DNA of 64,000 bases, from the NCBI GenBank assembly GCA_009889635.1, contig WTZQ01000003.1:5251-69250 (forward strand), given 5' to 3'. Position 1 is the stretch's first letter. Each line of letters opens with the position of its first letter. Below are positions 26,190 through 45,546 of the stretch, in pieces. The notes beneath the pieces are model-generated. The model saw only the letters and a list, made by a program, of their open reading frames with translations. It made no database searches and had not been told where the DNA came from. This DNA comes from Candidatus Hikarchaeum yamanae. GTDB lineage: Archaea; Halobacteriota; Halobacteria; Halobacteriales; Hikarchaeaceae. Made by a program: the position numbers and the translations under genes.

Positions 26190-26717
26190 CTACTTTATAA
26201 GTTCTTGGCCACGTTCAACTACAATCCTACACGGGGGGGATAACTTATTGTACGCCCGCCTTAGTGCCTCTTTTGTAACATTCACTTGATCCACATCACA
26301 ATAAACTGTAAAAACAATATCCCCTTTGTTCACCCTAGCGGCGGTACCGACAGGTTTCCCAAAAGACAATCTCATCCCATCGGAAACACGGTCGGCACCC
26401 GCCCCTGTAGCAACCTTGTTTTCACGGAGAATTTGATGCGGGAATTTATTAAGTAAAAATGTGTAGTTCCCCTCTCCCAATTCTGCAGCCAAGTGGCGAT
26501 TGGAAGTCAAACGTGCCGCTTCAAGGGAAGTATGCCTCAATTGACATGACTCTTCCACTTTTAAGCAAATTTTAACAGGATAATCTTCATGGGATTTATG
26601 CACATCCCCCATGATATGTCGTACAATTCTCGATCCAGGAATTCCAGTTACGTAGTCTCTCCGTGTATAGGCGACTTTATTCTTTTTCCTATACATGGAA
26701 GCAGGCTTTCGGGCCAT
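26190..26717 (-). CDS. rpl10e: 50S ribosomal protein uL16 (L10e)
   Basis: [32 protein letters not shown]-terminus. Confidence 0.93.
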
Positions 26718-26826
26718 AGTTACCAGAAAGAAGCTCTCACCTCTGCATAAAGGCTCCGAACCGTTCTTATCCTTTCACACCAGATTTCTCCACGTTATAT
26801 ATATTTTCCCCCATCGAGTGACATCT

Positions 26827-26843
26827 GTCAGACAAGGTCTGAC
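26827..26843. promoter_or_regulatory. 7-3-7 inverted repeat GTCAGAC-AAG-GTCTGAC
   Basis: Read directly from the sequence. It could be a hairpin or a protein site, and it shares GTCTGACGC with the 53.13 kb site. Confidence 0.4.
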
Positions 26844-26848
26844 GCACC

Positions 26849-26856
26849 TTTATGTA
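26849..26856 (+). promoter_or_regulatory. orphan TATA-like box (TTTATGTA) facing the non-coding region
   Basis: Preceded by GTCTGACGC, as at 53134-53142. No plus-strand ORF lies downstream. Confidence 0.3.
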
Positions 26857-26869
26857 GTTACAGAACTCA

Positions 26870-27080
26870 AAATCTTATACTCCTGCTTAAAACCCATCGC
26901 AGCGGTTATCACAACCACTGTTCGCCTCGACAACAGGAACAGCGGGAGTGGGTGCCACATACAGCAAATCATGGCTGATCTTATTGGCACCGTTTCTACC
27001 TTCTAAAGTGCCAACTTTATTCACTCATTACCCAACAAAACGTCGGACCATTTTTCTACTATCTCTTTTTTCAATCCAGG
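26870..27080. ncRNA. candidate structured non-coding RNA / leader (family unknown, strand unresolved)
   Basis: About 400 nt without a credible ORF. Helices: 26900-26907/26913-26920, 26915-26923/26937-26945, 26951-26957/26985-26991, 26983-26990/27008-27015. A TTTATGTA box at 26849 and T-runs at 27050-27076 favour the plus strand. Two G-U versus C-A positions favour the minus strand. Confidence 0.3.
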
Positions 27081-27121
27081 AGATCCCTCTGCAACTTTCG
27101 CGAAACTATCTTTTTGTACGC

Positions 27122-27502
27122 TTATTCTATCTCTATTTCCCTAGTTTCAAAACCTTCTTCGATTTTTGGACACGTTACTACTAGAATTCCATTTCTATAT
27201 TTTGCCTTCACCAAGTCTGAATTTCCAATTTTTGGAAGTACAATTTGTTCATTAATTTCTAGATCTATGTTTTTTGCGTTAATCATGAGAACAAATCCAT
27301 TACATTTAATCGATATCTCTTCCTTTTCAAACCCTTGTAGGTCCACTGTGATTATCATCTCCTCCTCCAATTCCTGAATATCAGTTTGGATCCCCGAACC
27401 ACTTTGGATTTTCCCTTCTTCTTCCACTGAGCCTATTATGGAGCCCACCATTGCTTGAATCTCTTCAAAAATATCTTCGAAAGGATCGTCAAAATTACGC
27501 AT
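27122..27502 (-). CDS. small heat-shock protein (Hsp20/alpha-crystallin)
   Basis: ITVDLQGFEKEEISIK...AKYRNGILVVTCPK alpha-crystallin domain. Confidence 0.88.
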   Translation of the reverse strand: MRNFDDPFEDIFEEIQAMVGSIIGSVEEEGKIQSGSGIQTDIQELEEEMIITVDLQGFEKEEISIKCNGFVLMINAKNIDLEINEQIVLPKIGNSDLVKAKYRNGILVVTCPKIEEGFETREIEIE

Positions 27503-28685: not shown

Positions 28686-29636
28686 ATGTCCCTCAAACAA
28701 GCCTCTTTCATAGCACTTTCCCAGTGCATGGGACTCCAACAAGGAGAATCTTGCCTCATAATCACTGACTCTGTCTGTAAAGATATAGGGGAATGTCTCT
28801 ACGAGGTAGCTTTAGATCTAACCACCGACGTCACTCTATTACTTTACCCTCCTGGAAATCAACATGGAGAAGAGCCCCCTTCTGATGTGGCAGCCGCCAT
28901 GCTGGAATATGACGTTTTTCTAGCTGCAACTAGTAAAAGCATCACTCATACTATGGCTAGAACTGAAGCCACCAATTCTGGCTCTCGTGGTGCAACTTTG
29001 CCAGGAATAACCAAGGAAGTAATGATAAAAGGTCTGTGTTCCAACTATGGCGCAATCCGTTCAACGTGCGACGATTTAATCCGCACTCTCGAGGGCTCCA
29101 AAACAATCCGTCTAACATCCCATTCAGGAACCGACATTGAGTTCAATCTAGGTTCTCGCAGTTGGCACTCTGACCATGGTATAAATCACAATCCCGGAGA
29201 TTTTTCCAATTTACCTGCTGGAGAGATCTATATTAGTCCCCTAAGTGCAGATGGAAAATTTATAGTAGATGGTACTATGATGCCCCATGGACTTTTAAAA
29301 GAACCAATAGAATTTGAAGTCTCAGGTGGATATGTGACTTATATTTCTGATAACGACATTAAAAACCAAGTCGAAATCGCCGCAAAGGATGTTGGGAAAA
29401 ATGCGTATAATTTGGCAGAGCTAGGAATTGGAACCAACCTCGATGTTGTTGAATTAATTGGATCCGTTTTGCTAGATGAAAAAGCAGCAGGAACTGTCCA
29501 TGTGGCAATAGGGGATGACAAAGGAATTGGAGGCGATGTAGAAGCACCATTGCACCTCGATGGGATCATTCGAAACCCCACCCTTTATGCAGATGGAATT
29601 AAAATTAGTCTACCTTCTTCCTCAATACAACTGTAA
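28686..29636 (+). CDS. aminopeptidase-like protein (M29/AmpS-type, COG2309-like)
   Basis: 316 aa. NLPAGEIYISP and GTVHVAIGDD patterns recalled for this family. Confidence 0.5.
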   Translation: MSLKQASFIALSQCMGLQQGESCLIITDSVCKDIGECLYEVALDLTTDVTLLLYPPGNQHGEEPPSDVAAAMLEYDVFLAATSKSITHTMARTEATNSGSRGATLPGITKEVMIKGLCSNYGAIRSTCDDLIRTLEGSKTIRLTSHSGTDIEFNLGSRSWHSDHGINHNPGDFSNLPAGEIYISPLSADGKFIVDGTMMPHGLLKEPIEFEVSGGYVTYISDNDIKNQVEIAAKDVGKNAYNLAELGIGTNLDVVELIGSVLLDEKAAGTVHVAIGDDKGIGGDVEAPLHLDGIIRNPTLYADGIKISLPSSSIQL

Positions 29637-36800: not shown

Positions 36801-37850
36801 ATGGATGCGCAAGAAGTCCAGGATTTACTTAGTTCTATTCCCGATCCGCGCCTTGGAAATGACATAGTCTCTCTCGGATTGGTTAATTCTATAACCATCG
36901 AAGAATCTACAATCAAAATATCCCTTGTTCTGGGGGCTCCTTACTCCACCGAAGAACGATCAATAGCCAAACAAATTAGAGATTTATTTTCAAATTCCAA
37001 ATTTGAAGTGGAAATATCTGCGCGATCCGAAAAAAATGTTTCACCCGAGGACGACCTTTTACCCACTGTCAAGAACGTAATCGCAGTAGCGTCCGGAAAA
37101 GGTGGGGTAGGAAAATCTACTGTTTCTGTAAATCTTGCCACCGAATTGGCGAGACTTGGCGCCAGAGTGGGCCTGTTCGATGCTGATGTTTATGGCCCAA
37201 ATACTCCTCGGATGATCGGCCACACGGACGAACCCCTTGAAACAAAAGATGGGAAAATCCAACCTCCTGAACAATTTGGAGTAAAATTCATTAGTCTAGG
37301 CCTTCTTGTCGGGGAAAATGACCCTGTAATCTGGAGGGGGCCTATGGTTCATAAAATAATTTCACAGTTACTTTCGGATGTAAATTGGGGTTCATTGGAC
37401 TATTTAATCATAGACTTGCCACCTGGAACGGGGGATGCCCAGTTGACCCTACTTCAAATTGTATCCGTAACTGGGGCCGTGATAGTCACCACGCCACAAT
37501 CGGTTGTCCTTGACGATGCCGAAAAAAGCCTTAAAATGTTTGATACACATGGAACTCCTATTTTGGGGTTAGTAGAAAATATGAGTGGATTTTTGTGCCC
37601 CTCTTGCAACACCGTCCACGACCTGTTTGGAACGGGAACTTCCGAGATATTTGCAAATGAATTGGAACTCCCATTCCTCGGACGAATTCAATTGGACCCT
37701 CTTGTTAGGAAGGGATCTGACGACGGATTTCCTGCCGTCCTCAATCCTGATTCAATAGCCCAGTCAGATTTTCAGACAGTTTGCCAAAATATAATCAATA
37801 ATGTAGGTGCATTAACCCGAAAATTACATTCTGATAATTGTGCAGATTAA
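36801..37850 (+). CDS. Mrp/NBP35/ApbC-family Fe-S cluster carrier ATPase
   Basis: N-terminal DUF59-like region, deviant Walker A VASGKGGVGKST, CPSC motif. Confidence 0.9.
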   Translation: MDAQEVQDLLSSIPDPRLGNDIVSLGLVNSITIEESTIKISLVLGAPYSTEERSIAKQIRDLFSNSKFEVEISARSEKNVSPEDDLLPTVKNVIAVASGKGGVGKSTVSVNLATELARLGARVGLFDADVYGPNTPRMIGHTDEPLETKDGKIQPPEQFGVKFISLGLLVGENDPVIWRGPMVHKIISQLLSDVNWGSLDYLIIDLPPGTGDAQLTLLQIVSVTGAVIVTTPQSVVLDDAEKSLKMFDTHGTPILGLVENMSGFLCPSCNTVHDLFGTGTSEIFANELELPFLGRIQLDPLVRKGSDDGFPAVLNPDSIAQSDFQTVCQNIINNVGALTRKLHSDNCAD

Positions 37851-45305: not shown

Positions 45306-45429
45306 TTCTGTCTGAATATCATACAATTTTAATCCGTTGTCCTTAAATAGCACACACGAATACCATATCCCACGTAATAGATGTAGGGGTCCCTCCCCGA
45401 GTCCCACAGTGGGCGACGAGAACCAACAT

Positions 45430-45516
45430 GTCGTGGTAGCCAAGTCTGGTCCAAGGCGCAGGGTTGCTAACCCTGTGGCGATTTCCGCCTCCGGGGTTCA
45501 AATCCCCGCCGCGACG
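45430..45516 (+). tRNA. tRNA-Ser (anticodon GCU), class II with long variable arm
   Basis: Acceptor GTCGTGG/CCGCGAC (one G-U); anticodon arm CAGGG-TTGCTAA-CCCTG; variable arm GGCG-ATTTC-CGCC; T arm CGGGG-TTCAAAT-CCCCG; discriminator G; no encoded CCA. Confidence 0.9.
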
Positions 45517-45546
45517 TCAATTGCATCTATACAAAACTATGAAAAA

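Follow-up and report, generated by a model that had tools for sequence, protein, structure and literature searches.

The question raised by this locus is what the 404 nucleotides (nt) that separate hsp20 from uL16, a ribosomal protein gene, contain in a deep-sea archaeon. The window (the whole stretch of 64,000 nt that was analysed) belongs to contig WTZQ01000003.1 of Candidatus Hikarchaeum yamanae, and all its coordinates are given on this stretch. An earlier sequence-only reading had described the gap as a structured non-coding spacer with two pairs of mutually exclusive helices, and had taken it for either an unclassified small RNA or a switch-like leader or 3' untranslated region (UTR), the minus strand being preferred. 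The present analysis revealed that the gap of about 400 nt is a composite of a gene relic, two divergent promoters and a conserved folded element. The folded element (26879-26991, possibly extending to about 27020, plus strand) is on balance best explained as an independent structured small RNA gene. This gene is probably new and clade-specific, matches no known family and diverges from uL16.

The conservation of the element among relatives was analysed. The relatives were gathered by anchoring on uL16. The distinct spacers so obtained, 16 at first and further ones later, group into about seven lineages, and identity at the four-fold degenerate sites of uL16 was used as the neutral yardstick. 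The lineages and the parts of the element are as follows.

Lineage A: the window, L206 and L002
Lineage B: L001
Lineage C: L003
Lineage D: L217, L245 and L246
Lineage G: L236 (L236-L238)
Lineage E: L004 and L220
Lineage F: L202 and L213 (also L203 and L216)
26879-26999, plus strand: candidate small RNA, with the conserved folded core at 26879-26991 (covariance model, folds and conservation)
26879-26887, plus strand: 5' arm of helix P1, ACUCCUGCU, pairing with 26941-26949 over 9 base pairs (bp)
26888-26899, plus strand: junction J1/2, UAAAACCCAUCG, with AACCCAUC inside it, invariant and predicted to be unpaired
26900-26920, plus strand: hairpin H1, 26900-26907 with 26913-26920 around a variable loop (covarying pairs)
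26921-26940, plus strand: UUCG, stem P3 (CCU 26925-26927 with AGG 26935-26937), loop CGACAAY, and AAC (variant folds and alignment)
26941-26949, plus strand: 3' arm of P1, AGCGGGAGU, containing the second CAGCGG copy, which is also used by helix H2
26951-26991, plus strand: hairpin H3, GGUGCCA 26951-26957 with UGGCACC 26985-26991, conserved in lineages A-D and G
27005-27018, plus strand: small hairpin AAAGU-GCCA-ACUUU beside the stop codon of a UbiD gene relic (minimum-energy folds of lineages A-C)

Alignment of the orthologous spacers, which the sequence-only reading had proposed as a check, showed the core to be conserved beyond the neutral rate. Its identity was 99.1% with L002 (80% at neutral sites), 86% with L003 (52%) and 85% with L217 (56%), and the 5' domain was still 84.5% identical to that of L004 (34%). 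The insertions and deletions (indels) of the core among the relatives have lengths that are not multiples of three. The comparison indicates purifying selection on the core beyond neutral expectation. A covariance model built on the element scored 136 bits in the window, 90-141 bits in all non-decayed relatives and 45-50 bits in lineage F. The element is present in every Hikarchaeia lineage recovered and decayed in one of them. In 76 Halobacteria loci the same model detected no homologue at up to 3 kilobases (kb) from uL16, and the element is restricted to one clade, Marine Group IV (MG-IV) or Hikarchaeia. The window itself holds a single copy. A possible second copy at 37131-37207 (plus strand; 14 bits) lay inside an open reading frame (ORF) of 349 amino acids, lacked the whole junction core and was judged a chance match, as was another at 1531. 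A metagenome pattern scan with AACCCATCN{15,35}TTCGCCTCGAC gave, among the 120 stretches listed, two true homologues (L168 and L191), the rest being due to chance.

The fold of the element was calculated for single sequences and for the alignment. All 10 non-decayed (non-F) variants, folded singly, gave the same P1/H1/P3/H3 architecture with energies of -38.6 to -52.5 kcal/mol. The 121-nt core of the window had a z-score of -3.48 on the plus strand, with the centroid identical to the minimum-energy structure, and of -2.40 on the minus strand, and the plus-strand z-scores of the variants ranged from -3.2 to -6.0. The full 404-nt gap folded no better than chance (z = -1.19 minus, -2.23 plus). 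In the alignment of 7 sequences 95.2% of the cells were able to pair, compared to 32-58% when the partners were slid by 1-3 columns. The strongest helix was P1, which was found by RNAalifold on both strands and had been missed by the sequence-only reading. In 7 variants it pairs at 100%, and it does not vary apart from its last pair, where lineage E has UG for UA. It carries the invariant wobble U26884-G26944, which would become a C-A mismatch when read on the minus strand. P1 encloses H1 and P3 and forms a three-way junction, the strands AACCCAUC and UUCGCCUCGAC of which are invariant and predicted to be unpaired. H1 contains two covarying pairs (U-A/A-U/C-G and U-A/G-C) as well as G-U pairs in lineages B and E. 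Variation in length is limited to loops. The UUCG and the P3 arms CCU and AGG are invariant, and all length variation of this segment falls in the P3 loop (7-10 nt); in lineage G (locus 301-438) a 17-nt insertion in this loop forms a 5-bp hairpin of its own, GUUCU/AGAAC. H3 has an inner pairing of CAGC (26962-26965) with GCUG (26974-26977), shows a G-U pair in lineage D and is extended to 8 bp in L245 and L246. In lineage E it is replaced, at the same position, by an unrelated 14-bp hairpin. The structural support is consistent across variants but thin, with modest covariation.

The strand on which the element acts was judged from the pairing, the folding and the flanking signals. On the plus strand 150 of the 154 alignment cells paired, compared to 139 of 154 on the minus strand. 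Wobble cells fitting the plus strand only numbered 13, corresponding to about 5-6 independent events including the invariant U-G of P1, while two fitted the minus strand only. The z-score was more negative on the plus strand in 10/10 non-F variants. The signals next to the element are listed below.

26849-26856, plus strand: TATA-like box TTTATGTA, at -30 to -23 relative to A26879
26827-26843, strandless: palindrome GTCAGAC-AAG-GTCTGAC, between two divergent TATA boxes
26796-26812, minus strand: uL16 promoter, a purine-rich GGGGGAAAA resembling a B recognition element (BRE) and then the TATA box TATATATA (read from the sequence)

The box TTTATGTA is preceded by GTCTGACGC, as had been reported, and the relatives carry TTTATTTA, CTTATTTA or CTTATTAA as the TATA-like 8-mer. 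Its distance to ACUCC, the first bases of P1, is constant at 22-23 nt across a poorly conserved spacer. This is the geometry expected of an archaeal TATA box and its start site. In lineage E the 3' hairpin is followed by T6 on the plus strand. The plus-strand sense of the element is accordingly rated as fairly likely, and the minus-strand preference of the sequence-only reading is contradicted by the wobbles, the z-scores and the TATA-like box. That preference had rested on two positions where the pair is a wobble (G-U) in a minus-strand RNA and a mismatch (C-A) in a plus-strand RNA. Both are present in the sequence, and neither carries weight as a strand argument: the C-A at 26917 is a single-nucleotide polymorphism (SNP) private to the variant of the window, all other relatives having C-G, and the pair 26983/27015 sits in helix H4, whose conservation does not extend to lineage E. 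The idea of a plus-strand RNA framed by this box and by the T-runs at 27050-27076 was supported at its start, after TTTATGTA, and failed at its end, where the T-runs are no terminator. These T-runs do exist; they correspond to antisense Lys/Glu codons of the gene relic described below, are not conserved, are shortened to T3 in L002 and L001, and were rejected as a terminator. The 3' end of the RNA is uncertain, from about 26995 to 27020, giving a predicted length of about 115-140 nt.

Lineage F departs from this pattern. A deletion of 25-27 nt has taken out the spacer that separates P1 from the TATA-like box, the fold is poor (-25.6 kcal/mol), the covariance score is 45-50 bits, compared to 105-141, and the identity to the sister lineage E is 78%, compared to 71% at four-fold sites, that is, the neutral rate. 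The copy in lineage F appears to be an RNA pseudogene, with the pattern that would be left after promoter loss.

The remainder of the gap on the side of hsp20 was explained by comparison with relatives. The features concerned are the following.

27502-27122, minus strand: hsp20 (Pfam HSP20)
27116-27021, minus strand: relic of a UbiD-family decarboxylase gene, its last 31 codons and TGA stop (match to the UbiD C-terminus)
27112-27117, minus strand: deletion junction with the 6-nt microhomology ACAAAA (comparison with L001)
26717-26190, minus strand: uL16 (Pfam Ribosomal_L16)

Contigs with an identical uL16 protein were found in two forms. In one, as in the window, hsp20 is adjacent at a gap of 404 nt, and in the other a UbiD-family gene of 505 amino acids lies between hsp20 and uL16 and leaves a gap of 303 nt. 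The relic of about 96 nt translates as QKDSFAKVAEGSPGLKKEIVEKWSDVLLGNE followed by the stop, the same as the C-terminus of the intact 505-residue UbiD ORF (Pfam PF01977) in L001, L206 and L208. A deletion of 1.45 kb between two ACAAAA copies removed the rest of the gene (window compared with L001 1110-1190 and 2560-2640), and the relic drifts at the neutral rate (82%, compared to 80% at neutral sites). The description of the gap as a spacer is therefore to be divided, since about 96 nt of it is UbiD relic and a conserved structured element stands within the remainder. As the adjacency of hsp20 is a product of the deletion, the element is not a cis element of hsp20, and the link to this gene has to be given up. 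Region 1148-2598 of L001 represents the UbiD-gene region that is present in a relative and absent from the window, where 27021-27121 remains. The deletion junction is common to the window and L002 (80% at neutral sites), and the closer L206 and L208 retain the UbiD gene; this distribution suggests an old polymorphism or a deletion allele spread by recombination. The small hairpin at 27005-27018 is weakly conserved and overlaps the 3' arm of H4; it may mark the 3' end or be a terminator of convergent transcripts.

The relation of the element to known RNA families was examined. At gathering level, Rfam 15 gave no match at the element, the only match in the window being a tRNA-Ser at 45430. In E-value mode over 26600-27250 the only entries were SmY (15 bits against a threshold of 39) and sR58 (13.8 bits against 55), both outside the core, and nothing was obtained at the element in the relatives L003, L004, L217, L236 and L245. 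ARAGORN reported no transfer RNA or transfer-messenger RNA at the element, only the tRNA-Ser at 45429-45518. Thus the covariance scan, a check proposed along with the alignment, left no Rfam family to explain the element. For C/D guides, no C box (RUGAUGA) within one mismatch was present on the plus strand, where one CUGA was seen; the minus strand had no CUGA and a single C-like box, one mismatch away from the consensus, in the non-conserved H1 loop. As to H/ACA guides, the element shows no pseudouridylation pocket whose stem is immediately followed on its 3' side by an ACA; H1 is an uninterrupted stem of 8-9 bp, H3 is followed by GUUUCU and not by ACA, and such ACA triplets as occur are located within H3 or the P3 loop. 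Mimicry of 23S ribosomal RNA (rRNA) was considered on the strength of the 8-mer UUGGCACC and the 6-mer CCUCGA, and was set aside, the matches being estimated, not computed, to be within chance for a 120-nt against a 2.9-kb RNA. A full-text search on the clade names showed no MG-IV or Hikarchaeia non-coding RNA in the titles and abstracts of its top results. The earlier suggestion of an unclassified small RNA is in accordance with these results, given the purifying selection and the same fold in every functional variant.

Several observations weigh against the reading as a plus-strand small RNA gene. The covariation is thin, as P1 and P3 are invariant and double changes occur in just 3-4 pairs, and the count of covarying pairs was not above that of shuffled alignments (reached by 227 of 500 and 326 of 500). 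Only about seven lineages, all closely related, carry the comparison. No purine-rich BRE is evident at the plus-strand TATA-like box, and TATA boxes are near-palindromic, so that the box alone leaves the direction unfixed. Lineages A-D have no T-run of four or more after H3, just UUUCU. Read as minus-strand RNA, the mismatch in H1 of the window and the three H1 mismatches of lineage F would become wobbles. Complementarity of 9-12-mers to possible antisense targets across the 64-kb window was at chance level, and transcription and the RNA ends are predicted from the sequence alone.

The main rival is a cis-acting role on the minus strand, either as a structured 3' UTR of whichever gene lies upstream (UbiD in the ancestral arrangement, hsp20 since its loss) or as an extended leader of uL16, perhaps an autoregulatory binding site of uL16. 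This is rated as unlikely. In its favour, it has the same sense as all the neighbouring genes, the linkage to uL16 is kept in all lineages, the minus strand also folds better than chance (z -2.3 to -5.7), and the H1 changes just mentioned would turn into wobbles. It would, however, convert the invariant U-G of P1 and five more wobble events to C-A mismatches. In every lineage the start codon of uL16 is separated from the element by a near-consensus BRE and TATA box of this gene, and the element is probably not part of the uL16 messenger RNA (mRNA). Neither a conserved minus-strand promoter upstream nor a conserved T-run downstream of the element was found, and the 99% conservation persisted after the deletion had replaced the upstream gene. 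A two-state switch or attenuator, in which P1 and H1 alternate with H2 (the 5' arm of P1 then pairing with the 5' arm of H1) and H3 alternates with H4 in control of read-through or activity, is rated considerably lower. The helices H1-H5 are all present at the coordinates given by the sequence-only reading (H2, 26915-26923 with 26937-26945; H4, 26983-26990 with 27008-27015), CAGCGG is directly repeated at 26900 and 26940, and the a-b'-a pattern occurs twice, as CAGCGG/CCGCUG/CAGCGG and GUGCCA/UGGCAC/GUGCCA. The mutual exclusivity of H1 with H2 and of H3 with H4 is thus real in the sequence, while P1 with H1, and H3, form the predicted ground state in almost every variant. H2 can form over 8-10 bp in lineages A-E and G, and 2-nt insertions in both arms in lineage E keep 9/10 pairs; forcing it costs just +1.6 kcal/mol in lineages A and D, and H4 keeps its pairing through plus-strand G-U in lineages B and C. 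Against this, both alternative helices, H2 and H4, arise from repeats: CAGCGG and GUGCCA are each present in two copies, one on either side of the complement. As H1 and P1 share AGCGG, the core of H2 follows automatically and brings no independent covariation; beyond it H2 adds only UUC/GAA, invariant except in lineage E. The probability of P1 is at least 0.73 in every variant, forcing H2 costs +4 to +7 kcal/mol (maximum +7.1) in lineages C and E, and H4 is lost in lineage E. Independent comparative support for H2 and H4 was not obtained. Downstream on the plus strand the sequence runs antisense to UbiD/hsp20 and offers no gene to control for at least 1.6 kb, the next plus-strand gene starting at 28686, and no riboswitch family matched in Rfam. 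A leader or 3'-UTR switch is likewise not upheld, because uL16 has its own conserved promoter after the element and no plus-strand gene follows. The proposed closing pair GAGTG/CACTC (H5) was rejected as part of the fold: its 5' arm belongs to P1, which competes with H5 as it does with H2, and its 3' arm, like the T-runs, lies inside the relic, where it overlaps the stop codon; lineages C and E do not have H5.

Two further explanations dispense with a functional RNA. The repeated hexamers, the clear palindrome at 26827-26843 and the position upstream of the uL16 promoter would suit a regulatory region acting as DNA, with direct or inverted repeats bound by proteins. This is regarded as very improbable, as it is complementarity and not sequence that is kept when H1 changes in a compensatory way (U-A, A-U, C-G) and when H3 is replaced by a different hairpin, the strand asymmetry of the wobbles is unexpected of sites in duplex DNA, and the long invariant stretches are unrepeated. 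A small protein gene on the uL16 strand was suggested by public ORF calls over the element.

L220 1220-1477 (lineage E) and L213 1244-1474 (lineage F), uL16 strand: public ORF calls over the element, with a substitution pattern that is not coding

Many contigs of lineages E and F have such a call, over 85 or 76 codons, and the 27 nt by which the two differ keep the frame. Between E and F the differences are distributed 17/13/10 over the codon positions, and 29 codon changes are non-synonymous as opposed to 2 synonymous. Neither the window nor the rest of lineages A-D and G has an unbroken frame, and no Pfam hit is on record; this is the least credible of the explanations. The non-triplet indels, the codon-change pattern and the broken frame mark the element as non-coding. 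The earlier statement that no credible ORF exists in the gap holds in the same way, since mechanical ORFs of 45-103 amino acids do exist and are broken by frameshifting indels in relatives.

The preferred reading, an independent plus-strand small RNA gene, would work as follows. Transcription would start at A26879 from the TATA box at 26849-26856, diverging from the uL16 promoter, and the palindrome between the two promoters may be a shared operator. The RNA would fold to the three-way junction of P1 (9 bp), H1 and P3, followed by the 3' hairpin H3, which may stabilise or terminate the transcript. The invariant unpaired nucleotides of the junction (AACCCAUC and UUCGCCUCGAC) would serve as the functional surface and bind, in trans, a protein or another RNA. 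Haloarchaeal intergenic small RNAs, for example those of Haloferax volcanii, have their own TATA promoters. The element resembles them in its size range (about 100-150 nt), predicted TATA promoter of its own, stable 3' hairpin and clade restriction, their hosts being the sister clade Halobacteria; it differs in having no similarity to any curated family and no match within 3 kb of uL16 in the Halobacteria loci searched. Ribosomal-protein leaders (bacterial L10, L20 and S15; the archaeal L1 mRNA mimic) are likewise structured, conserved and tightly linked to a ribosomal protein gene, but the element stands upstream of the promoter that belongs to this gene, and its strand is most likely the opposite one. 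With riboswitches and attenuators it shares mutually exclusive a-b'-a helices and a three-way junction with invariant junction nucleotides, and it differs in that no gene follows it on its own strand, a single conformer is predicted to dominate and no family matches. Archaeal C/D and H/ACA guide RNAs are also small, non-coding and often intergenic, but the element lacks a C/D box pair and a pocket with ACA 3' of the stem.

MG-IV, or Hikarchaeia, is an uncultured deep-ocean clade studied as an intermediate between methanogens and haloarchaea. If the small RNA gene is real, it would give a first handle on RNA-based regulation in this clade. In a bolder version, the element would be a new Hikarchaeia-specific two-state riboregulator, with the junction toggling between P1 with H1 and the H2 register, a change that the two CAGCGG copies would permit, on binding of a ligand or protein, and would be controlled together with uL16 through the shared palindromic operator; this is a speculation of low probability, which, if true, would tie the element to ribosome supply. 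The covariance model of the element is ready for use in annotation. Two annotations are corrected, as the ORF of 76-85 amino acids over the element in two lineages is spurious and the "400-nt spacer" of this genome consists largely of what a population-level deletion left of a gene.

The uL16 protein of the window is identical to the protein named for Ca. Hikarchaeum yamanae, shows 96-98% identity to metagenome-assembled MG-IV genomes and at most 73% to any Halobacteria, and the source of the window is a deep-sea MG-IV/Candidatus Hikarchaeum archaeon. The neighbouring genes (GAPDH, hsp20, uL16, a RimK-like ATP-grasp protein and an amidohydrolase) are all on the minus strand. The uL16 TATA box is TATATATA in the window and TTTATATA in the relatives. 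Transcription of uL16 is predicted to start near 26773, from the usual archaeal spacing, giving a leader of about 56 nt.

26718-26775, minus strand: 5' leader of uL16 (RNAalifold)

In this leader UUCGG (26760-26756) can pair with CCGAA (26712-26708, codons 2-4) and would enclose the start codon. The helix is weak (-7.7 kcal/mol by RNAalifold), and one G-C pair is changed to A-U in lineages E and F; it could serve in translational control of uL16. The arms of the palindrome at 26827-26843 are conserved and its centre of 3-4 nt varies (AAG, TCC, ATG, AGA, AAAA), and in lineage E the changes are symmetric (GGCAGAC/GTCTGCC). The palindrome is probably an operator, which may be shared by both divergent promoters, while a hairpin could be the alternative. 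One of its arms carries a recurrent A/G variant, which would be G-U only on the plus strand.

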